Notes: a model not told the origin generated them from the sequence alone. A DNA stretch of 64,000 bases from Candidatus Bathyarchaeota archaeon (GCA_963827165.1 CAWGZR010000005.1:640001-704000), one strand, 5' to 3'; shown: positions 903 through 33,830, counted from the first letter of the stretch. Made by a program: numbers and translations.

Positions 903-1511
903 TTATGTCCCTTGGTAAGTTTCGTATAACGCCACGAATTCAACAATGTCATTGAAATTTATGGTGCCTTGGTTAAGAAGGTCGCAGGCAGCGTTAAGGG
1001 TGGGAACGGTGGCATGGTCTGCAATGTAGGCCTGAGCGAAGTAGATTACGTCATTGAAGTTGACATGGCCGTCACCGGTGAAATCTAAATTGTATACTGT
1101 TAATGTGACAGTGTTGCTGGTGGCCGCGTTGTTGTTGCCGTCTGCAGTGTAAGTTGCCGTTATTGACACAGTGGTTGTACTGGTATCAGTATCGGTGTAG
1201 GTTACTGTTGAGGTGGCTGTGGTGGAGGTTGAGGTCGTCGTGGGGGTGCCAAGGACACTGCTTGTGCTGGTTGTATGCCACACGATTGATGTTGCCACTG
1301 GGCTTGAGCCGCCACTTAACGTCGCGGTCAAAGTAATTGGGCTATTGGCACAAAGGGTAGTAAGTGACGCGGTGACGGTTATCGTTGGACTTGCAATCGC
1401 TTTGACAGTAATGGCCGTTCCAAGAGTCGCCGCCAGACTAAGTATTAGGGCAGAGACGAGTATGACTGAAACAATTTTTTGATTCACTGAAATCTCCATC
1501 TTCACCTTCAC
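903..1511 (-). CDS. Secreted Ig-like (Big_3-type) protein with C-terminal dockerin-like module
   Basis: Signal peptide, Thr/Ser-rich Ig-like domain (ITATYTADGNN), and a duplicated EF-hand-like loop-helix DFTGDGHVNFNDVIYF / DLLNQGTINFNDIVEF. Confidence 0.8.
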   Translation of the reverse strand: MKVKMEISVNQKIVSVILVSALILSLAATLGTAITVKAIASPTITVTASLTTLCANSPITLTATLSGGSSPVATSIVWHTTSTSSVLGTPTTTSTSTTATSTVTYTDTDTSTTTVSITATYTADGNNNAATSNTVTLTVYNLDFTGDGHVNFNDVIYFAQAYIADHATVPTLNAACDLLNQGTINFNDIVEFVALYETYQGT

Positions 1512-1898
1512 GCTCTGTATTATATAACGCTAATCCATATAGAACATGTGAAGAACGTTAGCATTTAGTTCAGCTATTTAGAAACAGCCTAAACTCTATG
1601 CCCTATGAGTTGACCAAAATTCGCAGGGTTATTAGTTAAATTTCGGGATATCCGGTTAGGGCGTTCTGGTTGGAAAACTTGGGTCTATTTCTGGCGAGGC
1701 ATACTTAGACAAATTTGACGGTGAGCTTTGCCTTGAATCTGTAAATTTTGTGCCCTGTCCGATGGTTATTTTTTTTATTTTCAATTGAATTCTACATATA
1801 TTTCCAAGTTAGCCTTAGGTAAGTATGGTGACTTTAGAGTCGTATATAGTATATGAAGAAATGAGTTTTATGCTAACTTTTATATCATACTAAGAACT

Positions 1899-3575
1899 AT
1901 GGCTAAATTGCTCTCCAAAGCGATCACAGCACTGATCATAATCCCACTCTTACTGTCCATATGCACGCTGGATACACAACAATTCCCAACCGCCCACGCA
2001 TCCACACCCACATTATACATCACTAACATCCGAACTGTCAATAGCGATAATCAAAACTGCTTCTATTTCTGCAGAGGGGCAAACATTGCTGTATTCGACG
2101 TCTCCGTCCAAAACAACATAACATCGGTCGCTTCCGGACAACTGATTATAACTATGACTGATGTGGGTCGTGTACCCGTAGAATCCTTTGAGTCCAACGT
2201 CTTTTCAGTAAATGCGGGACAAAACGAAACTATCCAGGTCGCTAGCAGTATTATCCCAACCTATGCTTTTGTGGGAATAGCGAGTGCCCAAGTGATACTT
2301 GAAAACCCATCAACAGGACCCATAGGTTTCGGAAACATAAATTACTATATTGGATACACAATTCCCCCCAGCTATGAGTTTTCCGGCATTACCCTTAGCC
2401 CTTCTTACGCCTCCGTTATAGCTGGAAACTCTGTAAACTTTACCGCAATTGCCCATGACAATCTTGGCAACTATTTAGACATCAGTCTTGGATCAAATTG
2501 GAATATTAACTCTCGAGCCGAGGGTTCCTGGTTAGAAAACACCTATTCCGCGGCAAGAGCCGGTATTTGGAACGTCACGGCTTCATTGGGAAGTTATTCT
2601 GCCGCCGCGATGATTAGCGTCGCCCATGGCGCAACCGCTGCAATAGTTTTGTCTCCGCAAAAAACATCAGTCACTGCTGGGCAGAGTCAAACTTTCAGTG
2701 CCACCGCAAACGACGCATACGGAAATAGTTGGGACGTCACGGCTTCAGCAGTTTTCAGCATCAATTCTTTAGCTTCCGGCTCATGGGCGGGCAATGTCTA
2801 CACATCTGCGAAAGCTGGAACTTGGACAGTAACGGGCGGGCTTGGGAGCTTGATTGGCCAAGCATCTTTCACAGTTGTGCACGGTCCTATCAATAGCTTG
2901 GCTATTTCCCCGCAATCAGCAAATTTAACAGCTGGGTCATCGTTAGTCTTCATCGGTACCGCCTTTGATTCCTACGAAAACAGCTGGGACGTTACCGCCT
3001 CCACAGTTTTTAGCACAAGCAGTGACGCCGGAGGTTCCTGGTCGGGCAACACTTATACGGCTGCAACAGCTGGAGTTTGGGTTGTTTCGGGTTCTTTTTC
3101 AGGTTTTACCAAGACTGCTTCTTTAACGGTTAGCCATGGTTCGCCAATAACGATCTCCGTAGCTATGCCATCTGATGTTAACAGTGGTTGTTCATTTACT
3201 TTTTCGTCAACCGCCTATGATGCTTACAATAACGGTTGGAACGTCACTTCTTTGACAAGTTGGAGCATAAGCAGCGGCGCTGGCGGTTCATGGTCAGGAA
3301 ATACTTACACTTCAGCTAACCTTGGAAACTGGGTGATCACAGCGAATTACCTGAACATAAAAGACAATGCTGACTTAGGGGTGTACTACCCCATCGACTT
3401 CTACTTCGCTGGCACCGTTAATTTTTTGGATATAATTTACTTTATTGGTGCGTACACTAATTTTTATGAAAACGGCATCTTTAACCCTGCATGCGATTTA
3501 AACCACGACGGCTCCCTAAACTACATGGATCTGAATTTGCTTGTAGCATATTACACCGCCTACTCCCAGGGATGA
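1899..3575 (+). CDS. Secreted protein: IPxYAFVG domain, 4 Ig-like W-rich repeats, C-terminal dockerin-like module
   Basis: Signal peptide; four ~85-aa repeats (A.D.YGNSWDVT..GGSWSGN.YT) shared with 24127..28305; C-terminal DFYFAGTVNFLDIIYF / DLNHDGSLNYMD. Confidence 0.8.
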   Translation: MAKLLSKAITALIIIPLLLSICTLDTQQFPTAHASTPTLYITNIRTVNSDNQNCFYFCRGANIAVFDVSVQNNITSVASGQLIITMTDVGRVPVESFESNVFSVNAGQNETIQVASSIIPTYAFVGIASAQVILENPSTGPIGFGNINYYIGYTIPPSYEFSGITLSPSYASVIAGNSVNFTAIAHDNLGNYLDISLGSNWNINSRAEGSWLENTYSAARAGIWNVTASLGSYSAAAMISVAHGATAAIVLSPQKTSVTAGQSQTFSATANDAYGNSWDVTASAVFSINSLASGSWAGNVYTSAKAGTWTVTGGLGSLIGQASFTVVHGPINSLAISPQSANLTAGSSLVFIGTAFDSYENSWDVTASTVFSTSSDAGGSWSGNTYTAATAGVWVVSGSFSGFTKTASLTVSHGSPITISVAMPSDVNSGCSFTFSSTAYDAYNNGWNVTSLTSWSISSGAGGSWSGNTYTSANLGNWVITANYLNIKDNADLGVYYPIDFYFAGTVNFLDIIYFIGAYTNFYENGIFNPACDLNHDGSLNYMDLNLLVAYYTAYSQG

Positions 3576-3781
3576 TGCCGGAATTCCACGAATAAATAGT
3601 TGAGTTAAAGAAGAAAGTGCAGGATCAATGGATTTCTTGCTATTTATGTAGCTTATCTGTCATCGACGGGAATTATCTGATGAAAGTGTCTTGTGACATG
3701 CTAAATAGTTCTTGTGAAAACTATATTTCTCCCATGTTCTATGTTGAAAAACATCATATACCTCTTTTAGCATGATTTAAA

Positions 3782-4873
3782 TTGGGGAAAGGCTTGACCA
3801 GAAAAATAGTCGTTATTCTCCTTTCAATATTACTTTTAATAAGTATATTTTCTCTGATATTAATTGGGAATTTTAACGTGGCTAAAGCCGATAATCAAGG
3901 CACCCTTTCAACCGAGGGTACTGCTGCTGGATCTGTCCCTGGCGTAGCAATTGTTAACGTTGCGTCAGCGCAGACCTTCGTTGAAGAAGGATTTTCGGCT
4001 GACATAACTGCGACTGTCGACAACACGGGATCTTCAGCATCTATTTTTTATGTTACGTTTCTCGGCAACGGAGTTCCTCTTGATACTCAGCCTGTCGCAC
4101 TCGGTGGCGAAAGTTCAACTGCGCTTTCTTATGTGTGGAACACCACGGGTTTTGCCCTTGGGAACTTCACTTTAAGCGCTTACGCTTGGTCTAATCCAGC
4201 GGAAACCAGCTTAGTTAGCGCCAACAGTGTCAACGCCAACATTTTGGTGACTTGCCCTGATGATTTGACTGGTCAATCCACGGTGAATTTTTTGGACATA
4301 ACTGCCTTCGTCGCAGCTTATATTAACTATTATCAAACTGGGCAATGCAATCCCGCTACTGATTTTAATCATGATGGACGCGTAGATTTCAGCGACCTTG
4401 TCCTTTTCGTCGCCAATTACCAAGCCTACTTTGTGGGTCCAACTCCGTTTGTGACTAACGGTGGTTTGACGCTTACTTTGGCAATTAAGCAGACTACTTA
4501 CAGTTTGGGGGAGCCGGTTAATTTTACGCTCAGCATTAACAACGTGAGCAAAAGCACAATAACGTTTACGCGCACCGCATCCACCTTTGACTACATGGTA
4601 TACAACAGCACAGGCATCGTGTACCGATATTCGATCGGGATTGCATTTCCTATGTGGGCACAGATTTATACTCTGGCGCCTGGAGAAAGTTTAACGGAAA
4701 ATTTTAGTTGGGATCAAGTATGCAATCTATTTTTCAGTCCAGCCGCCGGCAGCCTAGGGCCTTCTAATCCAGTGGCCTTCCCTCCAGTTTTTCCAGCATC
4801 ACCCGGAACCTACTACATACTTGGGGAAGCACTTGGAATGCAAACGATTCCACAGCAAATAACCATAACTTGA
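3782..4873 (+). CDS. Secreted protein: CARDB-like domain, internal dockerin, BsuPI-like C-terminal domain
   Basis: Signal peptide; CARDB-like ITATVDNTG..YVWNTTG; dockerin DLTGQSTVNFLD / DFNHDGRVDFSD; C-terminal YSLGEPVNFTLSINN..FDYMVYN..LAPGESL..WDQ..PGTY. Confidence 0.72.
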   Translation: MGKGLTRKIVVILLSILLLISIFSLILIGNFNVAKADNQGTLSTEGTAAGSVPGVAIVNVASAQTFVEEGFSADITATVDNTGSSASIFYVTFLGNGVPLDTQPVALGGESSTALSYVWNTTGFALGNFTLSAYAWSNPAETSLVSANSVNANILVTCPDDLTGQSTVNFLDITAFVAAYINYYQTGQCNPATDFNHDGRVDFSDLVLFVANYQAYFVGPTPFVTNGGLTLTLAIKQTTYSLGEPVNFTLSINNVSKSTITFTRTASTFDYMVYNSTGIVYRYSIGIAFPMWAQIYTLAPGESLTENFSWDQVCNLFFSPAAGSLGPSNPVAFPPVFPASPGTYYILGEALGMQTIPQQITIT

Positions 4874-5655: not shown

Positions 5656-5717
5656 TGTAAAGCCTCGTATTTTTCCTTTCAGTTTTGCTTATTACTTTTT
5701 CCTGCATAGATGATTTG

Positions 5718-7441: not shown

Positions 7442-7460
7442 TTGTTTTCCCCTCTTGGTT

Positions 7461-8837
7461 TTAGCTTCCTTTCATTCTCTTATTAAGGTAGTTTCTTAGC
7501 AGCAGCGCTCCGATACATAACACAAGGTACATTGTAATGAGAACTAATGCCACTGCAAAAGCAAAACACCATGAATAGAAATTGGCGTCTGTGAGGTTGC
7601 CCTTGCCAAGGTTGCCTATTATGGTTAAAGCTCCCGGTGATTCGTCAATTAAAACGGTTAACGACGGAAGTGGCTGATGGAGACTAAATATGTGCCACCA
7701 TGGGGTGGGAAAACCGAAAACGCCTGAACCTGTGTAGGTCCACAGCAAAATTAAAGTTTCTCCAAGCGCAACTCCGATTCCGAGCAAGATTCCGGTTATA
7801 ATGCCGGGCATTGCAGCGTAGAGTGTCACTAGTCGAGCCGTCTGCCACTGTGAAGCGCCAAGGGCAAATGATGCTTCTCTGTAAGATCTAGGCACAGACT
7901 TCATCGCTTCTTCTGCTACTCGAATGTTCCATGGGAGAGCCATAAAGGACAACGAGATTGCCGCACCCCATAGGCTGTAACCCCATTTTAACGTTACCGT
8001 GAAAATCGTAAATCCGATAATTGCAACGACCACGGAGGGTGACCCTGCCAGGGTTTCTATGAAGAAGCGAATAGTGCTTACAATTCTATTTTGAGTTGAG
8101 TATTCTGCAAGATAAATCGCTGCTCCAATGCCGATTGGCACAGCCACGAATTCACAGAAAGTCACAAGCAATAACGACCCGAGAGCGTAACCTAGCACTC
8201 CTCCAGTCGAACCGATCGGCGGATGTAGCCCCCCGGTTATTTCGTTGATCCCGTGATAATTAAGATTCATCGAAGTGAAAAGTTGCACTGATAAGAAAGG
8301 CGAAGCCATCAATATCACGAAAATTACCATAGCTATGACGACCCCTATGCTAAAAATTACTGAAAGTCTCAAACCCAGTTTCACCGCGTTTTCCATCACT
8401 ACCGGTGAATCTTTAGTCTGATGCTCCATTCTTCGTCTTTTTAAAATTTCCAGTGTTGCAGCTACGCCGCTTAAAAATGCGATTGAAAGCGCGATGTACA
8501 TAGTCGCTGAATCTGCAAAGGCTATCAATAATGCAATGCCACAAGTTGAAATCGATAATTTCCAGCCTAATGAATGTCCTTCCCAAAGTAGATATGCTGC
8601 GGAAAACAGAATAAGGGATGGGAGTATAATGAGCAGTGACATCAAGCCAAAAGACCAGTACTCATTGATCGTGAGTATGGAAAAGGCTAAACTATCCATG
8701 CCATCCACAAAATTGTTAACGCCCAAAATCAGAATAATAACTCCAGAAAATAGAAGAAGGCTTCCTGTTAACAGGTTTTCTTTTTTCTTTTTCTTGAAAA
8801 AGTTGAACGTTTTCGTTAACACCAGGCTGAAATTCAT
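7461..8837 (-). CDS. pstA: Phosphate ABC transporter permease PstA with extra N-terminal TM domain
   Basis: GIGAAIYLAEY, IETLAGSPSVV, EAA loop REASFALGASQWQT, GILLGIGVALGET. Confidence 0.9.
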   Translation of the reverse strand: MNFSLVLTKTFNFFKKKKKENLLTGSLLLFSGVIILILGVNNFVDGMDSLAFSILTINEYWSFGLMSLLIILPSLILFSAAYLLWEGHSLGWKLSISTCGIALLIAFADSATMYIALSIAFLSGVAATLEILKRRRMEHQTKDSPVVMENAVKLGLRLSVIFSIGVVIAMVIFVILMASPFLSVQLFTSMNLNYHGINEITGGLHPPIGSTGGVLGYALGSLLLVTFCEFVAVPIGIGAAIYLAEYSTQNRIVSTIRFFIETLAGSPSVVVAIIGFTIFTVTLKWGYSLWGAAISLSFMALPWNIRVAEEAMKSVPRSYREASFALGASQWQTARLVTLYAAMPGIITGILLGIGVALGETLILLWTYTGSGVFGFPTPWWHIFSLHQPLPSLTVLIDESPGALTIIGNLGKGNLTDANFYSWCFAFAVALVLITMYLVLCIGALLLRNYLNKRMKGS

Positions 8838-8844
8838 TCCCTTT

Positions 8845-9775
8845 TTACGCCCCCAGTGTTTTACTCCGCCTAGCTAAGACTGTTCTTGCCGCAATGTTAA
8901 CTAAGCCTATAAGCACAAATAAGAAAAAGCCAACGGCATAAACCCCAGCTCCAGGACTGCTGGTAGAATCTTGCGCGCCGACGTAAACATTTTGCATGAG
9001 GATAGACAAAGTTTGACTTTGAATAAACGGGTTGAAAATCGTTAAGGGGCTGTTAAACAATGCGGAAGAAACTGTTCCTCCAAGTACCCACTGGATGGCT
9101 ACCATTTCGCCCATGGCTGCGGCAAGAGCCAATAAAAACGATGTCAGAATCCTCGGCATGGCACTTGGAACCAAAACTTCCTTAACAGTTTGCCATTTGG
9201 TTGCGCCAATTCCAAGTGATGCTTCTCTTAAATCGTTGGGAACTGCTCTTAAGGCATCTTCTGAAATCGTGGCTATTACAGGAAAGGACATTATGAGAAG
9301 AATTAACCAGGCATAAAAATCACAGCCAAGTCCTTGCAATTTTAGTTGAGTGTGCAAGAAACTGCTGAATGAGTATCTGGCATCGGGCGTGGCCAGAAGT
9401 TGCCAACCTATTAGCCCGATAACTATTGAAGGAAATCCATCTAAGACTTCGAGGGAGGTTTTTGTAAAGTTTCTTAGTCTCATATCCGCAAATTCCGCCA
9501 TGTAAATTGCGCATGGAAAGCCCACAAGAACCGCCAATGCTGCAGCACTGCCAGCGATATACAATGTTCCTTCTGCGGCACCAGAAAGTACAGCTGCCCG
9601 CTACCAACAAAGGGGTCATAAAAGCGTAAACACCATGTAATAATAAGTTGATTATCTCAGGGTATCCCATAAATAGCAAGTAGCCGATGATGGACAAAAC
9701 TACAATTATTGAAAAAGCCGCGCAAAGGAACAGGATTGTCTTGATTAGCCCTTCCTTAAACGATTTATTGGCCAT
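8845..9775 (-). CDS. pstC: Phosphate ABC transporter permease PstC, frameshifted near 9570-9600
   Basis: N-terminus MANKSFKEGLIKTILFLCAAFSIIVV from ATG 9775 after a G-rich RBS. C-terminal part has AIYMAEFA, LEVLDGFPSIVIG, ISEDALRAVP..REASLGIGATKWQT, AMGE. Confidence 0.85.
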
Positions 9776-10012
9776 CTGTTCCCCCCTTTTGCTTCTATGA
9801 ATTATGTGGAAAAGGCTGGAAGCAGGCAAGATAACGCTTTTCTATTTATAATGTATAGTCTAATTAGAAATCGCGTGTAACAAGTAATCGCTTCGTTCTT
9901 CACTATAGCCTAAATTGTCTCCCATAAACTACGTCGGTAAGCTAGATATCTGCTAGCCCCGAACTTATGCTCAGAACGAGAAATCGTTCATTAGAGAAAG
10001 GAGAAATATAAA

Positions 10013-11737
10013 TTGAATAAAATACAAAAAATAATAGTATCTATGTTAGTTATAGCAATGAATGACTTTTTCAGCAGGCGCAGCACTACGTACATGACAT
10101 CTTACGGTCGCTTCCCTGGAGCTACCAACACGTTGGTAACCCCAGGCCAATTGACAGTCGCAGGCTCAAGCACAGTCGGTCCAATCGCTACCGAAGAGAT
10201 TAACCAGCGACTGCAGGGGGCAATTTCGTCAGCATACTGGAACAACTTAGTTAGCACTGGCGTCAGTTACTTCATCAGACATCAGTCAAGTTAACTTGGC
10301 AACCTTAGGCAGCGGAACTGCAGTTCCAGCATTAGCGACAACAACCGGCAACTGCTGACATCGGAGAAATGTCAAGACCACCAAGACGGCCGAATTTTCA
10401 ACCACAGGCATAGTAGACATGCAGCAATATGCAGTCGGCGTTGACAGTGTCGCAATCGTTGTAAGCCCTGACATGACATGGCTCCCAACAAGCCTCAACC
10501 ACAAGGTCAGAAGATTGCAGGTTGCACTATTCGCAGACACCACTCCAACAAACGACGGCAACCAAGGCCTCACAGGCGTTACAGGCTCCACAGCATTGTG
10601 CAAAACTTGGGATGACTTCTTCATAGCTCACATTCGGCATTTCAACCACAGGCGTTCCATCCGCAGCCTTATCTGCAGAACATTCTTCGCGCAGTCAGAG
10701 ATCCAACATCAGGAACATTCGACTGCTTCGACAACTATTTCATAGCTCCAAACGGCTACCAATTTGAAAACAAAGCAACTACATCGACAAGCCCCGGCCA
10801 GAACCACCGTTGACGGCTCACAACGCAAATGGCGCCATTCACATACTGCCAAGAAAACATAACATTTACAACACCGTAAGTGCAGGCAAACTAACCTCAT
10901 CCAGCGATTACATTGGCTTCATCTCACTAGGATACTTAAACAGCTACGGCGGACCACAGAATTGGGTAACAGGAACAGTAGCTAACCCAATCCCAGCCGG
11001 AATCACTTCAGCCACAACTATGATCGGCATCCCCATCTCATACAACCTGGCAGCAACACCATCAAGCGCCCCAGCAGGTTCTCCAACACCAATCCTCAAA
11101 TATTATGGCAGCTCAGGCACATACTCCTTCATAGGAAGCACCGTAAACGCACCAACTTGGGGAACAGCAGTCGCACCAACAGACGCTAACGTCATCTACT
11201 CTTACTCCGGAATCGCAGGCGCACAAGCAACAGGCATGTACAATGCATGGAGATGGCTATGGGAAGTTACCAGGTACAAACCATCTTCAGGCCCAACCTT
11301 AGTAGCAGGTGTTTGGATTGCTTACATGATGGCAGACGGCACAACTAACGCAGGCGAGACTCCAGTATCGAACTCCACGGCATCGGCTCAGGAACCAGCG
11401 ACTTTGTCGCAAGACCAAAACTACATTCTCACTCGAACGCGACGACATGGCAGGCGGACCAGTACTCGACTCTAACCTTGACAGCATACACCACACTGAA
11501 GCCTACGGCAACTCAGACTCAACATTCCCAACAGGTGTAGTCAACTTCAACGACATCACATACTTTGTTGCTGCATACATCGACTACAACGTAAACCACG
11601 TCTACAACCCATACGCAGACCAAAACGCAGACGGCGCCATCAACTTCAACGACATCAGCCTCTTCGTCGGAAACTACATAGCATACTACACAACTACGAA
11701 ACCCAACCATAAATCTCCCCCATCCTTTTTTATTTAA
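10013..11737 (+). CDS. pstS: Phosphate-binding protein PstS with C-terminal dockerin-like module; several indels
   Basis: Fragments across frames: LTVAGSSTVGP, GSGTAVPAL..DIGEMSRP, YAVGVDSVAIVV, RDPTSGTFDCF, IGFISLGY, WRWLWEVT. These are followed by VVNFNDITYFVAAY / DQNADGAINFNDISLFV. The gene is divergent from pstC. Confidence 0.82.
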
Positions 11738-11764
11738 ACAGATAATTGAAAGGAGAAACAAAAC

Positions 11765-14182: not shown

Positions 14183-14330
14183 GTTAAAGATGGTAAATAA
14201 TCAAAAACCATCCCTATCTTTTCTTTTTTCTTTTCAAACTAAAATTTTAATATAGCTTGTTCGGAATTTGATTTGCTTTCTGTTAGTCTAATTAAGAATT
14301 AATATTCCAACCGCTTTTCTACGTTGATTT

Positions 14331-14344
14331 TTTCTATATAGAAA
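14331..14344. promoter_or_regulatory. Palindrome TTTCTATATAGAAA at the start of a duplicated promoter block
   Basis: 14-bp perfect palindrome followed by TTCTCAATATTATATTTTGGATAG, which also occurs at ~16916-16939. Confidence 0.55.
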
Positions 14345-15480: not shown

Positions 15481-15485
15481 GAAGC

Positions 15486-24126: not shown

Positions 24127-27100
24127 ATGGGAAGGCTAGTTAGAAATTCGGTTATATCCGTTGTACTAATTTTCATTATGCTTTTCCCGTGTCTGCATGT
24201 TGGATTAACTGTTGCTCAGCCTCCTTCAAATTATTTTACCATAACTGGCGCTCCATCCACAGCAACTGCGGGCCAAAGTATTAACGGGATAACGGTGACG
24301 GCGTATAATTCTAATGGTCAGGTATTGACAAGTTATACGGGGCAAGTTTATTTTACTTCAACCGATTCAAGAGCGACCCTTCCATATACTTCTCAGAGTA
24401 CTTACACTTTCACTACTGGCGTCTCAGGGGATAATGGAGTTCATGTTTTTTCAGGAATTAACTTAGTGACAGCTGGCTCCCAAACCATAACCGTCACTGA
24501 CGGAACTATGTCGGGAACTTCCCCTACAATAATAGTCAGTCCAGCTGCCCTTTACCAGATCCAAGTCTCACCAAAGACCGCAACAATAGTTACGGGGTCC
24601 CAAATAACCTACACTGCTACTGCTTCTGACTACTACGGTAACACGTGGGACGTTTCTGCTTCAACTTTCTTTTACATCGATTCTGGCGCCCACGGCTCAT
24701 GGTCAAATAACGTTTACACCTCCGCATCGACCGGCGTCTGGGGTGTAGGCGCCTTCTATAACGGGAAGACCGATTCGGCCTCTCTGACAGTTATTCAAGG
24801 AAACGCGGTGAGCATCACCATAAGCCCCAAAACCCCCTCTATCACAGCAGGCAACTCGCAATCTTTCACTGCAACAGCCCACGATTCCATGAGCAACGAA
24901 TGGGATGTCACTAGCCTCACAACTTGGAGCATAGATTCTGGCGCTGGCGGCTCCTGGAGCGCCAACACTTACACATCCCACATTGCTGGAACATGGCTGG
25001 TAACAGGGACTTACGGCAGCTTTCATGATACCGCTTCCTTAACTGTAACACATTCAACCCCATCTTACCTTAGTATTTCCCCAGTTAACCCAACCTCCGC
25101 GGCAGGCACTTCCGTAACTTTTACAGCTACAGCTTTCGACTTTTACGGAAATAGTTGGGATGTCACAAGTTTGGCAAGCTTTAGCATAACTTCTGGGGCT
25201 GGTGGTTCGTGGAGCGGAAACGTTTACACATCTGCAAAAGCAGGAATTTGGACAGTGTCAGCTAGTTATTTAGGCATACCTGCAACTACAACATTAACCA
25301 TCAGCTTCGCCAATGTTAACAGCATCACAATTACTCCTCAGACTTCCACCTTGGTGGCTGGTTCCTCAGAAGCCTTTACGGCTACTGCTTTAGACATTTA
25401 CGGCAACACCTTGGACGTTTCGAGTTCCACAAGTTGGAGCATTAATGTTGCCGCAGAAGGCTCATGGACCGGTAACACATACACTTCAGCGATAGCTGGC
25501 ATTTGGACGGTAACTGGTCTGTATGAAGGCATATCTGAGACCGCAACTTTAACGGTTACTCCAGGTTCTGCCGTCAGTTTAGTTGTAGGCTCAGCAGTAT
25601 CTTCAACTGCCGCCGGAACAAGTGTAACTTTTACTGCCACAGCCTTCGATAGTTTTGGTAACTCTTGGGCTGTTTCAGCTTCGACTTCCTGGGTTATTGA
25701 CTCAGGCGCGCAAGGGCATTGGTCTGGCAACGTTTACACTTCAGCGAAAGCTGGGTTTTGGACGGTAACCGGTGTTTATGGCGTATTAAGGGATAGTGCC
25801 ACACTAACTGTAACTCCTGGTCAACCAATCAGCTTAACAATATCTCCTCCAACAGCCGACCTAACGGCGGGTCTTACTCAAACCTATACTGCAACCGCCC
25901 AAGATAGTTTTTCAAATACTTGGGACGTATCCTCATTAGCCCGCTGGACTATCAATAGTCAGGTAGGTGGCCTTTGGTCAGGCAATGTCTACTCATCCGC
26001 CATAGCAGGATCATGGACCGTAACTGCCACTTATCAAGGCTTGTCCAACACCGCATCTTTAACTGTCACACACACCTACGCTGTGCAAATTCAGGTAAAC
26101 CCTGAAACATCAACCATTGTTGCTGGTAATACTCAAACTTATACGACTACAGCAACTGATCACTTTGGAAATAGTTGGGACACAACTAGTTCTTCAACTT
26201 TCACAGTAGACGAAGAAGCTGGTGGCTCCTTAAACGGGAACATCTACACTTCAGCTAATGCTGGAACATGGACCGTTACAGCCACAAGCCTCGGATTAAC
26301 TAACACCGCTATGTTAACAATCACCCATGCGTCAGCGGTCTCAATCTCTATCAGCCCAAATACTGCTACAATTACTGCGGGAAGCACCCAGACTTACACG
26401 GCATTGGCATCTGACACGTACAACAATATCTGGGACGTAACAAGCTTGACAACTTGGACTGTCAGCACAGGGGCGGGAGGCAGTTGGTCCGGCAATGTTT
26501 ATACTTCTGCAGCTTCGGGAAACTGGGTGATCAAGGGAACTTATTCAAGCTTTTCCGACACCGCTTACTTAACTGTGAATCATGCTAACGCCATAAGCGT
26601 CAGCATAATGCCTAAGACAGCTACCATAACAACGGGATCCAACGAAGCGTTTACTGCCACTGCAATCGATGCGCACGGCAACATTTGGGACGTCACTAGC
26701 GCTTCAACTTGGATAATTGATTCTGGTGCCGGCGGCTCATGGACAGGAAATGTCTATTACTCCGTCGATGCAGGCACCTGGAGAGTAACCGTTACTTACG
26801 GCAGTTTAACTGACACTGCATCTTTAACAGTAAATCATGGAACCGCTCAAAGCATAACGGTGACTCCAACAACGGCAACCTTGACCGCGGGCTCTCCTCA
26901 AACATTTACAGCAACAGCATACGATTCTAACGGTAACAGATGGGATGTCACCAGCTCCACGACCTGGACTATTGATTCTGGCGCAGGTGGCCTTTGGAGT
27001 GGCAGCACTTACACTTCAAACACAGCTGGCGTCTGGATCGTCGTGGGAACTTACTCAGGATTAACCAGCACATCCACAGTAACCGTAAATCACGCGCCTG

Positions 27101-28305
27101 CAGCCAGCATAACCGTGGGATCATCCTCAAACTCGATCACCGCCGGAGCCACAGTAACTTTTACTGCCACAGCCTCAGATGTTTATGGTAATTTATGGAG
27201 TGTCACAAGCTCTACTGTCTGGACTATTGATTCTGGTGCGGGCGGCTCCTTATCGGGAAACAGTTACACTTCCGAATTATCCGGTGTCTGGACTGTTAAA
27301 GGCGCCTACGGAAGCTTATCTGATATACTATCCTTAACCGTAACTCATGCTTCCATGGTCAGCATCAATGTTACTCCCACTGATGCCACCGTTGCTGCAG
27401 GTTCCAACGAAGCCTACTCAGTCACAGCCTACGACAGCTTCGGCAACAGTTGGGACATAACAAGCTCGGCGCAATTGAGCATATCCTCTCAAGCAGGCGG
27501 CATCTGGACCAACAATGTTTATACTCCCGCTAAGGCAGGCACATGGACAATCACTGCCGCAGTTCCAGGCTTTTCAATAACAACACCCATCATAGTGGTT
27601 CATGGTTCCATAGCCAGCGTAACAATTTCGCCCCACAATCCAACAATTAACGCGGGATCAAGTCAGACCTTCACGGCGACCGCCTATGACCAGTACGGAA
27701 ATTTCTGGGACGTAAGCAACCTTGCAATCTGGATTATCGACTCTGGCGCTCAAGGTTCATGGGCAAACAGTGTCTACACTTCAGATAAAGCAGGAACGTG
27801 GGAAGTCACAGGAGTCTATGACAACTTACTGGACAATACCTTCATGACTGTTAACCACGGCACAATCACGAGCCTCACAATAACTCCAGCCACGGCAACG
27901 ATTAATCAAGGAAGCACTCAGACCTACACTTCAACCACTTCGGATGCTTACAGCAATACCTGGGACGCCACAAGCTCAACCAACTGGCAAATAACTGCGG
28001 GCGCTGGCGGCTCATGGACAGGAAACGTCTACACATCTGCTAATACGGGCACTTGGACCGTTACCGGCACCTCTTCCAGTGTATCTGGAAATGCACAGCT
28101 GACAGTAAATGGATATTCACCAGTTGATTTCCTTCACACAGGCCAAGTAAACAGTCTAGACATATTCTACTTCATTTACTGGTACGTTTATTACGGTCAG
28201 TATGGATACGTCAATCCAGCTTGCGATTTTAACCATGACGGAAAGCTGAACTTCCAAGACGTAGTGCTATTTACGACTTACTATATCGCTGCCACGACAC
28301 CATGA
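24127..28305 (+). CDS. Large Ig-like repeat surface protein (14 repeats of ~85 aa) with C-terminal dockerin
   Basis: Signal peptide; 14 copies of TATA.D.YGN.WDV...W.IDSGAGGSW.GN.YTS..AG.W.VT; C-terminal DFLHTGQVNSLDIFYF / DFNHDGKLNFQD. Confidence 0.85.
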   Translation: MGRLVRNSVISVVLIFIMLFPCLHVGLTVAQPPSNYFTITGAPSTATAGQSINGITVTAYNSNGQVLTSYTGQVYFTSTDSRATLPYTSQSTYTFTTGVSGDNGVHVFSGINLVTAGSQTITVTDGTMSGTSPTIIVSPAALYQIQVSPKTATIVTGSQITYTATASDYYGNTWDVSASTFFYIDSGAHGSWSNNVYTSASTGVWGVGAFYNGKTDSASLTVIQGNAVSITISPKTPSITAGNSQSFTATAHDSMSNEWDVTSLTTWSIDSGAGGSWSANTYTSHIAGTWLVTGTYGSFHDTASLTVTHSTPSYLSISPVNPTSAAGTSVTFTATAFDFYGNSWDVTSLASFSITSGAGGSWSGNVYTSAKAGIWTVSASYLGIPATTTLTISFANVNSITITPQTSTLVAGSSEAFTATALDIYGNTLDVSSSTSWSINVAAEGSWTGNTYTSAIAGIWTVTGLYEGISETATLTVTPGSAVSLVVGSAVSSTAAGTSVTFTATAFDSFGNSWAVSASTSWVIDSGAQGHWSGNVYTSAKAGFWTVTGVYGVLRDSATLTVTPGQPISLTISPPTADLTAGLTQTYTATAQDSFSNTWDVSSLARWTINSQVGGLWSGNVYSSAIAGSWTVTATYQGLSNTASLTVTHTYAVQIQVNPETSTIVAGNTQTYTTTATDHFGNSWDTTSSSTFTVDEEAGGSLNGNIYTSANAGTWTVTATSLGLTNTAMLTITHASAVSISISPNTATITAGSTQTYTALASDTYNNIWDVTSLTTWTVSTGAGGSWSGNVYTSAASGNWVIKGTYSSFSDTAYLTVNHANAISVSIMPKTATITTGSNEAFTATAIDAHGNIWDVTSASTWIIDSGAGGSWTGNVYYSVDAGTWRVTVTYGSLTDTASLTVNHGTAQSITVTPTTATLTAGSPQTFTATAYDSNGNRWDVTSSTTWTIDSGAGGLWSGSTYTSNTAGVWIVVGTYSGLTSTSTVTVNHAPAASITVGSSSNSITAGATVTFTATASDVYGNLWSVTSSTVWTIDSGAGGSLSGNSYTSELSGVWTVKGAYGSLSDILSLTVTHASMVSINVTPTDATVAAGSNEAYSVTAYDSFGNSWDITSSAQLSISSQAGGIWTNNVYTPAKAGTWTITAAVPGFSITTPIIVVHGSIASVTISPHNPTINAGSSQTFTATAYDQYGNFWDVSNLAIWIIDSGAQGSWANSVYTSDKAGTWEVTGVYDNLLDNTFMTVNHGTITSLTITPATATINQGSTQTYTSTTSDAYSNTWDATSSTNWQITAGAGGSWTGNVYTSANTGTWTVTGTSSSVSGNAQLTVNGYSPVDFLHTGQVNSLDIFYFIYWYVYYGQYGYVNPACDFNHDGKLNFQDVVLFTTYYIAATTP

Positions 28306-28490
28306 TGAAACTAATAACAGAAAAACTTCTCTGCAAAGGCCGATTCAAAAATCGGCACCCGAGAGGGCAAAATGTGCAATCAAAACGTTTTCTAAATAGA
28401 CTATTTTCTCTTGCTCAGTCTCAATGTTGACTATGGCGATAAGTGTCATATGGATAAACCATCCATACAGCTCTCTTGGTTGAGAGGCTT

Positions 28491-30801
28491 ATGAAGAGAG
28501 TGTTAGCGGTATTCGTAGTCTTGGTCATCTGTATGTCCATGTTTGGAATGTTATCACCAAAAACAATGGCTCAAAGTCCACAACCAACAAGCGTCACGGT
28601 TTCCTGCTCACCAAACCCTGCTGAAGCAGATTCCCCTGTTACTATAACAGCTGTCGTCACCGGGCAAAACCCGACTGGAAGCATTACTTGGAGTTCAGAG
28701 ACTACAAGTATTTCGAATCAAGAGGGTGTTGAAGGCAGCTTCACTTCCAACGTAAGCTTGGTGTCGGCTAATGGTATTTCCACAACTACTTTCTACGATT
28801 CAATCTACGGTTCGGACCTTATAACTGCAACCTACAGCGGGGATTCATTTAATTCTCCAAGTGTCGGCACGAGCACTCTGACGTTGGTTCCTGAACCGAT
28901 GCCTCAGCTTAGCGTGGTTCTCTCAGGAACTCAGAGTACTTCGGCAATTCCCACCCAGCCGATTGGCTCCACCTTCAGTGTAGATGTACGAGCGGAAAAT
29001 CTAACGGGCATTAAGCCTGGAGTATGCGCCATCGGGTATGAATTAATCTGGAATCCTTCGGTTTTAAGTTTTACAAGTTACAGCGACAATAATTGGTTGC
29101 CTGATCAAATGAACCTCGACATCATAAGTTCGCAGTGGATTTCAATTGGCACCGCAATTATTAGTCAAATAGCTTTTGACACTAACAGCGCGTGGGCTTG
29201 CACTACGGTTAACGGTAGTGTAAGTGCTACGTTTAGGTTTCGTGTGATTTCTGGTGGCTCAAGCTCTATTGATCTTCGAGAAGAAGGCACAACGGGTTAC
29301 ATAGACTATCCAGCGCTAACGCTGACCGGTGTAGTGACGGGTATTAACATTGCTGCGAATACATCAAACGCGATTTATGGTACGTCTCAGGCGCTGTCCA
29401 ATAAATCGTCAGCTTATGTTTATTGTTCAGCAAACCCCGACTTGGCTGGGAGTCCGGTTACATGCAACGCCATTATTTATGGTGGAAACTCAGTTCCCGC
29501 AGGAACAATTACCTGGAGCACAAATAGCAGCACTGCTAGTTTCGGCTCAGTTCAAACTTCTTTGATTAACGGAATGTCAAAGACAAGTTTTGTCGATGCC
29601 AATATAGGTAACGATGAAATTACTGCTATCTATAGCGGAGACTCCAATAATTCAGCTTGTTCGGGAAACACTACTTTGTCCCTTTTCGTTGAATCCTTTT
29701 CTTCGATACCTCGGGTTAGCGTTGTGCTTTCTGGTACCCAAAACGTCTCCGACATTCCGCCATCGCCCATCGGTTCCTCTTTCAACGTAGATGTCAGAGT
29801 GGATAACCTTACTGGCATCAGCCCGGCGTAAATGGTATTTCATACGAATTGACGTGGGATCCTTCAGTGCTGAGCTTTGTAAGTTGTTTTGACAACAACT
29901 GGCTGCCTAGTCAATTTAACATCGACTTTACGAATCCGCAGTACGTATCAAAGGGAACTGCAACTATTGGCCAAGAAGCTTTTGTCCCTACTAATCCGTG
30001 GGCTTGCACCACATTTAGCGGTAGTGTCACTGCTACGTTTACGTTCCGCGTGATTTCTGGTGGCTCAAGCTCTATTAATCTTCAAACCCAAGAAGGGTTA
30101 ACTGGTTTCGTAGCATACCCAACGGTCGTTGAGACGGGTATTGTGGAATCCGTTTTAAAGGGGCCAACCTCCATTTCAAATGCTGTGTATGGGAAACCAG
30201 TTGCTGCCTGTGACAATGCCCTTGTCAAAGGTGGCTCTGCGTCGGTTATTGATTCTTCAGCGGGTATTACGGTAGATTTGAGCGGCAGTTCTGCTCCTGA
30301 CAACACAAATTTGGCCATCACTTCGACTAACTATGGAGTTGATCTTCCGGAGGGTATCAGCAAATTCGCAGTAGGCGATGGAATAGGATATTATGATGTG
30401 AAGGCGAGTTCAGATGTTTCTTTTGGCTCAGATGCTTCAGCTATATTTCTTTTTCCAATCCTGCCTTCACATCTAGCTGCTTTATCTCGTACTGGGACGG
30501 AAGTCAATGGGTCGAGTTAGCTACAACTTACACTGCGCCAAACACGGTTTCATGCAGTATTCCAGCAGCCGACCTATCTGGGACACCTTTTGCAGTAAGT
30601 GCATTTTCGCTTGTGGACTTTTATCGTACTGGCACCGTCGACTTTAACGATGTCCTCTACTTCGCTGCCGCATATATTCAATACCAACAAACTGGAGTTC
30701 TCAATCCTGCGTGCGACCTCAATCATGATAGCAAATTAGACTTCAACGACATACTGCTATTCGTCAGCGATTACCAAGCAGCAGCCCAAAGCAAAGGATA
30801 A
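28491..30801 (+). CDS. Adaptor-like scaffoldin: (Big_3, cohesin) x2, further domain, C-terminal dockerin; split by frameshifts near 29830 and 30450
   Basis: Two homologous cohesins (FSVDVRAENL..WNPSVL..SATFRFRVISGG and FNVDVRVDNL..WDPSVL..TATFTFRVISGG). The terminal ORF 30613..30801 is a dockerin (DFYRTGTVDFND / DLNHDSKLDFND). Confidence 0.72.
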
Positions 30802-31233
30802 GTTAGTTGAGTGCAAGATATGATCATGCGGGTTTTGCGCCGCGCCCGAAAAAGCCAAGATTACAGACTGTATAGGGTAGGGCACTTCCAAGAACTACAT
30901 TTTTCGTAAACCAATGTTCCTCGTTCGTGCGGTATCCCAGTTCATTTATTAAACAGCTCACTTCCTCAAGACATGTGTGCGGTTTTGCCTTTTTCGTTCA
31001 CCTTGTAGGCATTGTTATTCAAATCCGGTTCGCGAATCAACACTCAGCAAGAGCTACTACCAAATATCCCCGAGACTGGCTTCTCAATCTTGCCCACCAC
31101 GTTGAATGTTAGATTCTCCGAACGACTAATTTTAGTAATTTACTTGAGATGAACTTGGCCGTGCATATCGAGACTTAAATTTGAGATGCCTTTTTAAACA
31201 TCAAAAAAGGCCGAATTATTCGTTATGCGCAAA

Positions 31234-31791
31234 TTAATTAGGCGCAACGTAAATTGGCAAATCTTTTTTCAGAACAATTTGCGCGTCAAACCTCGAGAAG
31301 AGAAAAAAAACCAAGATTACATCCACGCACAAATCGAAAACAGATGCTGGTGCTCCTAAAGATCCGAGAAAGAGGAACTGTACGAATTGAAAAAGGGCAG
31401 CCAAGGCGAATATTGCTAACGCTGTGACGCGAGCAAGCTTATGTCTAACCCAAAGCCCTAAACCAACGAGCAGAAGGTCTAAGCCAATAAGCCACGATAC
31501 TAAACCTGCGCTTGAAGCACTCACATTTGCGATGTCACCGATATAAAATGGGATTCCAGGAACCCAGCTGACAGCAGAAACCATTGATTGAGCCGCTTGG
31601 TTTGAGGTGCCCGCGCCGGTTAGCATCAGGTAAAGCCCACCTACGATCAAAACCATGCCAAACGTTATAACTAATTTGCTAACTAAATCCGTGATAAGTA
31701 TGCGGTCTGACAAATATTTTTTAAGTTTATTTATTTGATCAGTCAAAGGTGAAAAAAAGTTCTTTGCTTCTCCCAACATATGATCACACAA
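31234..31791 (-). CDS. Small polytopic membrane protein, overlapping the phoU stop codon
   Basis: About four hydrophobic segments; GLGLWVRHKLAR motif resembles the PstA N-terminal extension. Confidence 0.7.
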   Translation of the reverse strand: MCDHMLGEAKNFFSPLTDQINKLKKYLSDRILITDLVSKLVITFGMVLIVGGLYLMLTGAGTSNQAAQSMVSAVSWVPGIPFYIGDIANVSASSAGLVSWLIGLDLLLVGLGLWVRHKLARVTALAIFALAALFQFVQFLFLGSLGAPASVFDLCVDVILVFFLFSRFDAQIVLKKDLPIYVAPN

Positions 31792-32827
31792 GTATCGAAT
31801 CCACTGTCAAGTTTAGAACTATTTCGGCAATGTCGCAGGAATACTCAGCTGTCCTCCTTATGCTTTCGATTATTAGTCTTAAACTTGCAATATCTTCGAG
31901 GTCAATCTTGGCTGATGCAACCGCCTCCCTCTCCAATATGCCGACCTCCTTAATGCTCTCTATAATTGTCTCAGCTGAGTTGTAGTCTTGCCTGAAAAGT
32001 GATTCCATCGCAGTGTCGAACATCTTTATAGCTACGGCGCTCATTTTCTCTATTTTTTCTGAGACATCACAATTCAACTTGTGTTTAAGCGCCAAAACGT
32101 TATCCGCTATCTTAACTGCGTGGTCAGCAGTCCGTTCTATTGACTTTGTGACAAGACGGTAACCCAAGGAGTCTTTACCGCTTGCAAGGCCAATTTCTTT
32201 GCTTACTCGTGGGTTTTGCATTGCCATCTTTAGCTGCCTTATCACATAAAGATTGAATCTGTCTACTTCGTTATCCGTGGTCATGACATCTTTTAGCAGT
32301 AAATTATCGTTTGCGTTAAGACCTAATATAGCGTCTCTGTGCATCGATGCTGTAATTATACTCATTCTTCTCAATGCGCTTTGAATAGTCAATTCAGGGT
32401 AACTCAATAGGACCTGCAAAATCAGCTGAGCGGAAGTGTCGGTCACAATTTCGGTCCCAACAAGCATTCGCCGAACAAAAGCCTTCATGTCATGTCTTTG
32501 CTTGGACGATAATTGTTGTTTGTCTGATCTAACATGGATTGAATTATAACCTGATAGATAGGCTGACACGATCTTTCTGTTAATCATTTCAGTGTCGTCG
32601 TCTGGGCGAACCATGATTGTTGCTTCATCAAGCTTTTTCTTTAATTTGGTGCTCGGGGGAACTATCGTTAGAGATCCGCCTTCTTCTTCATGGAGTCTTA
32701 TGAAACTTCCTTTTTTAATTTGATTTTGCTCAATCCAGTTTTTCGGCAACGAAATAATGTATGTAGAGCCGCCTGTAAACTGAATTTTTCGTGTTTCATC
32801 GTCCACTTTTGGCTGCCACAAAGTCAT
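31784..32827 (-). CDS. phoU: Archaeal phosphate regulator with AbrB/SpoVT DNA-binding domain and two PhoU domains
   Basis: RKIQFTGGSTYIISLPKNW N-terminus; DNEVDRF, IERTADHA, IRRTAEYSCDIAE PhoU repeats. Confidence 0.92.
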   Translation of the reverse strand: MTLWQPKVDDETRKIQFTGGSTYIISLPKNWIEQNQIKKGSFIRLHEEEGGSLTIVPPSTKLKKKLDEATIMVRPDDDTEMINRKIVSAYLSGYNSIHVRSDKQQLSSKQRHDMKAFVRRMLVGTEIVTDTSAQLILQVLLSYPELTIQSALRRMSIITASMHRDAILGLNANDNLLLKDVMTTDNEVDRFNLYVIRQLKMAMQNPRVSKEIGLASGKDSLGYRLVTKSIERTADHAVKIADNVLALKHKLNCDVSEKIEKMSAVAIKMFDTAMESLFRQDYNSAETIIESIKEVGILEREAVASAKIDLEDIASLRLIIESIRRTAEYSCDIAEIVLNLTVDSILV

Positions 32828-33077
32828 CCCTTCTCACGCCCGACCTAACAAGTATAGTTTTCCCTATTGGTTTACATAATAAATCTCTTCGCTAAAGAGA
32901 TTATATATTGAATCATATTCTATGATGGCTATTGTGGAAACCAATATTACACAAAGACCTTCTTCATTGTCACTGCAAACAAGCTGGAAAGATTCAAACG
33001 TGAAAAAAAAGACTCAACCAAAAGGCTTCACATATTGGATTTCACATTTTACCTTCCTGAATCAGAGGCGATATTAA

Positions 33078-33830
33078 TTGGGGAAAGTGGAAACTAAGAA
33101 ATTCAACCTGTGGTTCAAGAATAATCACGTTTTAAAAGACGTCGATTTCACAGTCCAAGAAAATGCCGTAACAGCTATCATGGGACCTTCAGGATGTGGC
33201 AAATCTACGCTTCTGCGTTCAATTGATCGCATGAATGATCTCATCACTGGCTGTCGTACACAAGGAGAAATACTTTTTGACGGCCAAAATATCTATGCTG
33301 AAGACAGCAACGTTTACGAGCTGAGAAGAAGAATAGGCATGGTTTTTCAAAAGGCTAATCCGTTCCCAAAATCGATTTATGAAAACGTGGCTTTTGGTCC
33401 AAAAATACACAGCATGGCAAAAGGTGAAAAACTCGATGAATTTGTGGAGAAAAGCCTTAGAGGAGCTGCTTTATGGGACGAGGTTAAAGACCGTCTACAC
33501 GAAAGTGCCTTTGCCCTTTCAGGAGGCCAGCAACAGCGGCTTTGTATAGCGCGTGCGTTGGCAGTGGAGCCTGAGCTTATTCTGATGGATGAGCCCTGTA
33601 GTGCTTTGGATCCTGCCGCGACCCTAAAAATCGAAGCGCTCGCTGCTGAGCTTAAGAAAAAGTATACTGTTATTATTGTGACTCATAATTTGCAGCAGGC
33701 GGCTAGAGTGTCTGATTTCACTGCTTTTATGTACGTCGGGCAGTTGATTGAATTTGATGATACGAAAACTCTGTTTGAGAACCCGCGGAACCAGTTGACT
33801 CAAGACTACATTAAGGGTCAGTTCGGTTAG
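33078..33830 (+). CDS. pstB: Phosphate ABC transporter ATPase PstB
   Basis: [59 protein letters not shown]. Confidence 0.96.

Follow-up and report, generated by a model that had tools for sequence, protein, structure and literature searches.

A cohesin-dockerin gene island among phosphate-uptake genes of Bathyarchaeia and the putative surface tethering of a second PstS

Introduction

A 64,000-nucleotide stretch of contig CAWGZR010000005.1 (positions 640001-704000; assembly GCA_963827165.1) from a Candidatus Bathyarchaeota archaeon—here called the window, with positions counted from its first letter—carries a set of pst phosphate-uptake genes interspersed with genes for cohesin- and dockerin-bearing surface proteins, including a PstS-like phosphate-binding protein that ends in a dockerin. 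We read this locus as an accessory second Pst system of a soil Bathyarchaeia archaeon, in which PstS is probably held at the cell surface by a cohesin-dockerin link and not by a membrane anchor; we put the probability of this reading at roughly 0.6. The observation itself and the conserved gene arrangement are well supported by sequence comparison, and a cellulosome-type plug-and-socket appears to have been reused here for keeping a nutrient-capturing protein at the surface of the cell.

Under this proposal, PstS would be exported and its dockerin would bind, with calcium, a cohesin of the membrane anchors, making contact directly, via the tandem-cohesin protein encoded just downstream or via an adaptor. 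The tether would keep PstS beside a dedicated PstCA permease, whose PstA carries a co-inherited N-terminal extension, with PstB powering that permease and PhoU governing it. Additional cohesin scaffolds and the adaptor would multiply the docking sites, and the same scaffold could display further dockerin proteins, including Ig-repeat proteins that are possibly adhesins.

A dockerin-bearing PstS in a second Pst system

The island pstS gene (9995-11737, + strand), which runs through four frames in the assembly, encodes a protein that starts with a signal peptide of cleavable appearance, lacks transmembrane segments and ends in a dockerin (11498-11704) of a distinct, conserved subtype. It is colinear with an intact 466-residue orthologue from a related genome, G020 (L006:1236-2636, − strand), which comprises a signal peptide, a PBP_like_2 domain (PF12849; 39.6 bits, cut-off 27) and, at the C-terminus, a Dockerin_1 match (19.9 bits). 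By eye on alignments, PstS::dockerin proteins retain the loop motifs GSSTV, GSG, ADIGxxSR and SGT, which we take to be typical of phosphate-binding proteins.

This PstS is co-encoded with pstC, pstA, pstB and phoU. As an earlier note on this DNA had described, these genes flank the cohesin-dockerin block, with pstA (7461-8837, −) and pstC (8845-9841, −; two frames in the assembly) on one side and phoU (31784-32827, −) and pstB (33078-33830, +) on the other. PstB scores 395.7 bits against TIGR00972 (cut-off 343.2). PhoU (76.1 bits) bears an N-terminal AbrB/MazE-type DNA-binding domain (MazE_antitoxin, 43 bits), both matches lying above their cut-offs.

A second, conventional operon—pstS, pstC, pstA, pstB, phoU—lies on contig C12 of the same genome. 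Its PstS passes the TIGR00975 equivalog (246.7 against 205 bits) and has a membrane helix at its N-terminus, then a Pro/Thr-rich linker; a search of C12 with hidden Markov models (HMMs) of the modules detected no dockerin. With a membrane helix and no dockerin on the C12 PstS, the dockerin of the island PstS therefore stands in place of an anchor; lipid anchors on PstS are also common elsewhere. The island system thus resembles conventional PstSCAB-PhoU in its five components, its equivalog-passing PstB and its adjacent PhoU, but differs in having a dockerin where the other PstS has a membrane helix, in a PstA lengthened by about 160 N-terminal residues with extra hydrophobic segments, and in the insertion of cohesin and dockerin genes.

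Conservation of the arrangement in relatives

Among 24 other genomes of the genus, a dockerin profile matched five, always as a cluster, which in four of them is bordered by pstB-phoU on one side and PstS-pstC-pstA on the other. A search with an alignment of five PstS::dockerin proteins against one genome per species returned 19 loci. At 18 of them, on 17 contigs (four belonging to genomes already in the genus search), PstS has cohesin and dockerin genes as neighbours, the order being pstA-pstC / PstS::dockerin / cohesin genes; the linkage between pst and cohesin-dockerin genes for which the earlier note had proposed a synteny check thus recurs across related assemblies and is no accident. Sixteen of the 17 contigs are titled Bathyarchaeota or Bathyarchaeia (two as Ca. 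Bathycorpusculum) and the other comes from a metagenome-assembled genome labelled Ca. Acidoferrum. PstS and dockerin share one uninterrupted open reading frame (ORF) at 14 loci and occupy adjacent frames at three; at L019, where PstS is in fragments, the protein has no detected dockerin. The one remaining locus, from Methanothermococcus, lacks a dockerin.

PstS::dockerin always adjoins a dedicated pstC-pstA pair, with an equivalog-passing PstB in the same locus, and the number of cohesin and dockerin genes inserted between pstS and phoU/pstB ranges from two to more than ten. In the minimal 9-kb cassette (L025), the order is phoU, pstA, pstC, PstS::dockerin, cohesin::dockerin (239 residues; Dockerin_1 43.0 bits), a cohesin-PKD-PKD-transmembrane anchor (403 residues; Cohesin 44.2 bits), a small membrane protein and pstB.

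On a wider scale, the PstS-type dockerin profile was found in 24 of 401 genomes of the order, including 15 of 88 others of the genus. Of 100 other genomes of the genus, 18 have the PstA extension, and wherever both searches matched a genome, the extension and the PstS dockerin are 2-3 kb apart. Public annotation misses these dockerins: 105 public protein clusters match PstS::dockerin at E ≤ 1e-10, and a dedicated profile finds a terminal dockerin in 101 of them (the other four being truncated), whereas precomputed Pfam annotation flags just one. PstS::dockerin thus forms a family of no fewer than 101 clusters. Record titles among the relatives name Bathyarchaeia of peat, bog and soil, and the system may therefore be of importance for acquiring phosphorus in habitats of that kind.

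One relative, G004, has an 856-residue open frame that runs through PstS, dockerin and cohesins with no internal signal peptide (L009 13878-16445, − strand, equal to L023 9911-12478). It could be either a natural cargo-scaffold fusion or an assembly artefact.

Cohesin and dockerin modules

A regular-expression search of the six frames of the window found paired G-x-V/I-N-F-x-D segments at eight sites, plus three unpaired chance matches. The eight modules (906-1106 on the − strand, 3375-3572, 4241-4447, 11498-11704, 15277-15477, 23131-23337, 28105-28302 and 30595-30798) can be aligned across some 66 residues, with a mean column identity of 55%, and are rich in aromatic residues. Dockerins are recognised by a duplicated stretch of about 22 residues, in which a 12-residue calcium loop (positions 1, 3, 5, 9 and 12) precedes a helix; all eight window modules show this tandem duplication, each with two segments and one loop carrying five of five canonical calcium positions. 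A profile built from them and run against all PDB sequences placed 2y3n_B first (E 9.3e-7, both repeats aligned), followed by 4fl4, 6kg9 and 1daq, with EF-hand proteins at weaker E-values. Dockerins of PstS (n = 20) form one clade (Shimodaira-Hasegawa-like support 99) with an invariant NPY-x-D signature.

Among PstS dockerins, one lineage (L008, L020-L022, L024, L026 and L029) has both calcium loops degenerate, examples being VPRLVVDANDFFYF and a second loop that ends in GGS, not FND, while its aromatic helices are retained. The dockerins of this lineage may, from their sequences, be calcium-independent.

Eight cohesin modules lie in six genes, at 11947-12261, 12392-12886, 15573-16010, 17072-17530, 18246-18761, 19993-20514, 28896-29381 and 29706-30193, all in the places that the earlier note had given for eight cohesin-like domains in six proteins. 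Its count of eight dockerin proteins needs adjusting: the eight modules are at the named sites, but the dockerin at 30613 and the pair of cohesins at 28491 appear to belong to one gene that is spread over overlapping frames, and there are therefore seven dockerin proteins, one of them a cohesin-cohesin-dockerin adaptor.

Pfam lists Cohesin (PF00963; cut-off 24.1 bits) in three of seven cohesin ORFs scanned, at 27.2, 21.3 and 21.2 bits, the product of 18183-19871 exceeding the cut-off; other passes come from L003 (43.2 bits), L004 (38.5 bits), L001:18335 (32.9 bits) and the L025 anchor (44.2 bits). The four unlisted ORFs are linked to the family through a profile from six cohesin modules, which retrieved from the PDB solely cohesins or cohesin-like proteins (27 sequences at E ≤ 1, best 3l8q_A at 2.3e-8). 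An AlphaFold2 model of the cohesin at 15573-16010, made from 40 aligned modules, reached a predicted local distance difference test score (pLDDT) of 95.1 and a predicted TM-score of 0.89. It has the fold of solved cohesins, a nine-stranded beta-sandwich with jelly-roll topology, and Foldseek gave 171 PDB matches at E ≤ 0.001, with cohesins in all listed rows. The best was the Archaeoglobus fulgidus cohesin 2xdh (E 3.5e-10, TM-score 0.72/0.75, 17% sequence identity). The homology of these modules to cohesins and dockerins, as first proposed, is thus borne out by the PDB profile matches for both families and by Foldseek for the cohesin.

The cohesin tree splits into two deep clades (support 100/99): clade A unites both anchor types with module 2 of the tandem-cohesin gene that follows PstS, and clade B holds the modules of the secreted scaffolds and the adaptor. 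Within orthologous subclades gene position is preserved across species. Taken from the sequences, this pattern of cohesin and dockerin subfamilies is what dedicated pairings would produce.

Searching the whole genome (3.13 Mb, 14 contigs) in six frames with the module HMMs put 13 of its 14 dockerin and 10 of its 12 cohesin modules in one island of about 48 kb (C5:622.8-670.8 kb), which begins 17 kb 5' of the window and is larger than the earlier note had described. With so many of the modules in 48 kb of 3.13 Mb, the clustering is not due to chance.

Anchors, adaptor and predicted pairing

Every island protein has an N-terminal hydrophobic signal, and a C-terminal transmembrane segment occurs in only two of them, both cohesin proteins. 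Anchor 1 (15468-16835, +) consists of a signal peptide, an A-type cohesin, PKD domains (PKD_4, 69 bits), a Ser/Thr-rich linker, a C-terminal transmembrane helix (residues 432-450) and a basic tail. Anchor 2 (16991-17788, +) has a signal peptide, an A-type cohesin (21.2 bits), a Ser/Thr/Pro-rich linker, a transmembrane helix (residues 238-256) and again a basic tail. Just downstream of pstS, a secreted protein (11765-14182, +) carries two cohesins, the first of B type and the second of A type, followed by Big_1/MG2-like beta domains, and has no membrane anchor and no dockerin. The adaptor (28476-30801, +) is read in three overlapping frames, that is, with two frame changes, as a signal peptide, Big_3_5, cohesin, Big_3_5, cohesin and C-terminal dockerin; relatives have cohesin plus dockerin proteins in single ORFs. 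Together with the dockerin cargoes, PstS among them, these two transmembrane-anchored cohesin proteins, the secreted multi-cohesin proteins and the adaptor make up the parts that the earlier note had listed.

Complex prediction, which that note had proposed for all pairs, was run for one, the PstS dockerin with the cohesin of the PKD-transmembrane anchor, with two calcium ions and three controls. The pair scored 0.35 against 0.02 for the best control, graded by the tool as weak support, with contact agreement between runs of at least 93% and partner pLDDT of at least 73. When the tool was calibrated, the mark was passed by 58 out of 80 solved complexes and by 2 out of 110 mismatches; only 7 of the 80 passed it with a score of 0.60 or less, as did both of the passing mismatches. 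Cohesin-dockerin complexes have already been solved, and the score may therefore reflect likeness only.

Points against the tether, and two other views of its parts

Several findings weigh against the tethered-PstS reading, and some of them would suit other explanations. Dockerin_1 (PF00404) is listed in five of six dockerin ORFs scanned but at 13.6-16.3 bits, below the cut-off of 22.9, and is unlisted for 24127-28305 in the Pfam single-sequence scan; that threshold is passed only by the adaptor of the orthologous L025 cassette. The Pfam scans put forward in the earlier note as a check therefore support one window cohesin above the cut-off and leave all window dockerins beneath it. In each window dockerin one of the two calcium loops—hence half of all loops—is degenerate, and in several relatives Asp-12 is missing from the second loop of the PstS dockerin, so that calcium-dependent binding may be altered. 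The AlphaFold2 model of the PstS dockerin, with helices at residues 17-33 and 50-67 and a loop before each, is of moderate confidence (pLDDT 74.2), and Foldseek gave it no match at E ≤ 0.001. Rows 1-17 of that search were all dockerin chains (E 1.0-3.3, TM-score 0.32-0.58), a structural match based on rank only.

Low Pfam scores, degenerate loops, a rank-based structural match and the weak EF-hand matches in the dockerin profile search could all be accommodated if the dockerin-like modules were calcium-binding, EF-hand-like stabilising tails, not cohesin binders, co-occurring with cohesins through shared surface-protein ancestry. We regard this as very improbable, given that 13 dockerins and 10 cohesins share one 48-kb island, that the subfamilies of both modules are conserved, that proteins with both cohesin and dockerin exist, and that the best PDB matches are dockerins, not EF-hand proteins.

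The PstS domain is a further point of difficulty. The G020 orthologue scores 60.9 bits against TIGR02136, well short of the cut-off of 206.6, and the best PDB match of a PstS profile is PstS2 4h1x at E 7.3e-6; with the domain so divergent, its ligand is read from gene context. Divergence from curated PstS models would fit a role resembling that of a carbohydrate-binding module (CBM), in which the PstS-like domain targets phosphate-bearing particles or polymers—possibly minerals, phytate, nucleic acids or teichoic-acid-like polymers—instead of, or besides, delivering phosphate to PstCA. A conventional pstSCAB-phoU operon is already present in the genome, and the 856-residue frame of G004 looks more scaffold-like than shuttle-like, which would also suit such a role. 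Against it stand the constant adjacency of PstS::dockerin to pstC-pstA, the equivalog-passing PstB of the locus and the retained loop motifs, and on balance we find it improbable.

Two further points count against a tethered PstS that serves its own permease. Through several scaffolds, the tether might hold PstS too far from the membrane for it to reach the permease; and both pstC and pstS are frame-shifted in the assembly, error having been shown only at three sites of the neighbouring cohesin gene.

A shared promoter motif, and the island as envelope structure or antenna

The palindrome TCTATATAGA occurs at 14333-14342, with copies of at most one mismatch at 1534, 5719, 16898, 18001, 21587, 23700 and 28391, so that the window has eight where 0.91 would be expected, every one of them between genes of the island. 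At the same stringency, 12 of 28 matches on C5 fall within 620-672 kb. Five exact copies exist in the genome: three in the island, one inside an ORF on C9 and one on C12 (G000:C12:101360), 42 nt upstream of the second phoU. In relatives, the orthologous dockerin gene and the anchor gene are preceded by the motif; L017, L025 and L031 have it between pstC and PstS, and in L025 it also stands 28 nt upstream of phoU. The window itself lacks it in the spacers between pstC and pstS and between phoU and pstB. The shared motif, a candidate operator or special TATA or B recognition element (BRE), hints at co-regulation of the island genes; for phosphate control, the hints are the neighbouring PhoU and this promoter motif only. 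A look-up of sequencing runs for 9300-12600 listed no RNA data set.

The absence of TCTATATAGA from those two spacers would sit well with a broader role for the island, as a general envelope or adhesion structure that displays Ig-repeat proteins on scaffolds that may be associated with the surface layer and from which PstS only borrows an anchor, the rest having nothing to do with phosphate and not being regulated by it, and the linkage reflecting joint inheritance on a single accessory island. Ig-like, CARDB or PKD repeat proteins without a link to phosphate make up most of the cargoes; the island is patchy, being found in 15 of 88 other genomes of the genus, and is split by a transposase-like ORF; and one relative, G005, has cohesin and dockerin genes without a PstS-type dockerin or a long PstA. 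However, beyond the pst genes and PstS::dockerin the L025 cassette has a single adaptor and a single anchor and carries no further cargo; on 17 contigs the cohesin genes are embedded in the pst set, between pstS and phoU/pstB; and TCTATATAGA does precede phoU or occupy the pstC/PstS spacer in L017, L025, L031 and the second pst operon. An island unrelated to phosphate apart from PstS seems to us unlikely.

A more ambitious possibility, which we think rather unlikely, is a phosphate-regulated hierarchical scaffold in which many copies of PstS, docked on anchored and secreted cohesins, form a phosphate-capturing antenna that extends around the cell, with the PstA extension as the hand-over site. 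If so, this would be a mode of nutrient scavenging undescribed for any ATP-binding cassette (ABC) importer, and archaeal cohesin-dockerin pairs would have their first assigned physiological role.

Comparison with known systems

To our knowledge, cohesin-dockerin pairs have no demonstrated role outside cellulose degradation, especially in archaea. The cohesin-dockerin island shares with the cellulosomes of clostridia and ruminococci and with the amylosome of Ruminococcus bromii the duplicated calcium-loop/helix dockerins on cargoes and cohesin beta-sandwiches on scaffolds, the hierarchy that runs from anchor through adaptor (cohesin plus dockerin) to cargo, and the clustering of genes. By contrast, the island anchors rely on a transmembrane helix at their C-terminus and not on SLH domains or sortase; what is conserved as cargo is the binding protein of a transporter; and the dockerins are aromatic-rich with one degenerate loop. 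No glycoside hydrolase or CBM family was found in 20 window ORFs scanned at E ≤ 0.1, in agreement with the earlier note's statement that glycoside hydrolases are missing here. Having no carbohydrate-active cargo or CBM among those ORFs, the island is by the defining feature not a cellulosome, and by analogy may be called cellulosome-like in its assembly logic.

Archaeal modules had previously been described as lacking an assigned context, a view that is out of date: dockerin-bearing ABC substrate-binding proteins and scaffoldin-like proteins are reported from anaerobic methanotrophic (ANME) archaea in the section of PMC9012536 that deals with them. As given there from domain annotation, the dockerins are on NikA/OppA- and TroA-type ABC binding proteins (Chadwick et al., 2022, PMC9012536), and ANME genomes encode proteins with one dockerin and up to five cohesins. 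The likeness to our case is close, in that archaeal ABC binding proteins carry dockerins and proteins with one dockerin and several cohesins occur in the same genomes. The difference lies in the type of binding protein and in the operon: section 32 of PMC9012536 names NikA/OppA and TroA types and no operon coupling, with PstS cases possible in its S4 Data, whereas in Bathyarchaeia PstS takes that part, with cohesin genes embedded in the pst set and conserved along with it. The same source summarises A. fulgidus as having isolated cohesin and dockerin modules and no multi-cohesin scaffold. The modules of A. fulgidus and those described here are alike in being archaeal and without a link to cellulose, and 2xdh is the best structural match of the anchor cohesin; here, unlike there, 12 cohesins and 14 dockerins are encoded, set within an operon.

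Judged from search listings, we found in the literature no pst-linked or Bathyarchaeia cohesin-dockerin system, and regard the pst-linked arrangement as new, dockerin-bearing binding proteins being already known from ANME archaea. What the locus offers is a cargo of presumably known function inside its own transporter operon, conserved from a 9-kb cassette to a 48-kb island, which reduces the question of what archaeal cohesins and dockerins do to something small enough to test: a binding protein, one or two adaptors and an anchor. The aromatic, half-degenerate dockerins and their cohesins may also offer new orthogonal pairs for protein-assembly engineering.

Other genes of the block

Besides PstS, the dockerin cargoes comprise Ig-repeat proteins and a CARDB/BsuPI protein in the window and, upstream of it, a PQQ-type beta-propeller protein and a 736-residue protein described below. 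At the left of the window, the gene at 906-1511 (−) encodes a secreted protein with a signal peptide, an Ig-like domain and a C-terminal dockerin (Big_3_5 17.5 and Dockerin_1 13.6 bits, both below cut-off); 1899-3575 (+) a secreted protein of repeated Ig-like (Big_2-like) units with a C-terminal dockerin; and 3782-4873 (+) a secreted protein in which an internal dockerin (16.3 bits) separates CARDB (26.5 bits) from a BsuPI-like domain (45.1 bits), the latter two scores being above cut-off.

Between the tandem-cohesin gene and anchor 1 lies the gene for a secreted two-domain protein with a C-terminal dockerin (14425-15480, +), overlapping the next gene by 13 nt and having orthologues at an unchanged position in relatives. 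Downstream of anchor 2, 18183-19871 (+) encodes a secreted B-type cohesin (27.2 bits) followed by a Pro/Thr linker and MG2-like and CARDB-like domains, and 19882-21537 (+) its paralogue, again with a B-type cohesin. Next come a secreted protein with an N-terminal domain, an InlB-B-repeat-like domain and a C-terminal dockerin (21726-23343, +; one frameshift after the signal peptide) and a secreted protein of 1392 residues with Ig-like repeats and a C-terminal dockerin (24127-28305, +). The N-terminal domain of the former (window 21781-22600, in the frame 21781-23343) contains AYC...DQVAIW, which we take to be like the Cys/TQXA thioester adhesin motif; the likeness is unconfirmed, Pfam and NCBIfam searches at E ≤ 10 having given nothing relevant. 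Beyond the adaptor, 31234-31791 (−) encodes a small membrane protein of four segments, whose L025 counterpart, alike by eye and unscored, lies between anchor and pstB.

Frameshifts in the assembly

Frame changes affect pstC, pstS and the genes at 11765, 21726 and 28476; outside the stretch aligned below, frameshifts lie near 6.9, 21.7, 29.8 and 30.4 kb. Contigs from four soil-metagenome runs (two studies) were aligned over 8800-14300. Single bases at 12053, 12084 and 12254 are missing in all four runs, including in contigs with no other differing letters, and dropping the three bases yields one continuous cohesin frame to the stop at 14182; at least three frameshifts in the 11765 gene are therefore assembly errors. 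Short-read contigs show many single-base gaps from 9.35 to 12.4 kb and none from 12.5 to 14.2 kb, and 9350-12400 looks like a locally error-rich stretch of the assembly. In the pstC region (9354-9710) they differ by three gaps, while 10.1-11.6 kb is covered only by more divergent contigs, for example one with 44 other letters and 42 gaps in 1147 nt. The pstS frameshifts are likely, though not proven, to be assembly error. Over 9350-12400, guanine-cytosine (GC) content is higher (0.48-0.49) and GC skew strongly negative.

Genomic surroundings

Directly upstream of the island, at L001 1-10200 (G000:C5:610001-620200), is a polyphosphate cluster with genes for a CHAD protein, PPK2, Ppx/GppA, a fusion of CHAD, metallophosphoesterase and Ppx domain III, PPK1 and CYTH. 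With phoU and pstB downstream, the island therefore sits between polyphosphate and pst genes. It is broken up at the left edge of the window by a transposase-like ORF (3-779, −, with L002 9211-9999, −; weak matches to MULE, 28.6 bits, and IS66-type, 17.9 bits, the latter below cut-off). No tRNA genes were found in the window or the 30 kb upstream, and hence no tRNA-linked insertion site.

In the upstream part of the island, a 730-residue ORF (L002 352-2544; G000:C5:630352-632544) encodes the PQQ/BamB-type beta-propeller protein, with a cohesin and a terminal dockerin. Another gene (L002 2734-4944; G000:C5:632734-634944) encodes the 736-residue dockerin protein, whose N-terminal 450 residues or so have no family match in Pfam, NCBIfam or PDB sequences. 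Its language-model neighbours are alpha/alpha-barrel glycosidase-like clusters, at a sub-threshold score of 0.80 that is at chance level; it would be the sole candidate enzyme among the island cargoes. Two paralogous multi-span membrane proteins (L001 14834-16096 and 16144-17427), the first with a PIG-V-type mannosyltransferase match (32.1 against 22.4 bits), may act in glycosylation of surface proteins.

The sole cohesin or dockerin genes outside the island encode a 977-residue protein with both modules (L003 7891-10821, −, on contig C4; Cohesin 43.2 bits) and a 258-residue cohesin protein (L004 5830-6603, −, on contig C3; Cohesin 38.5 bits).

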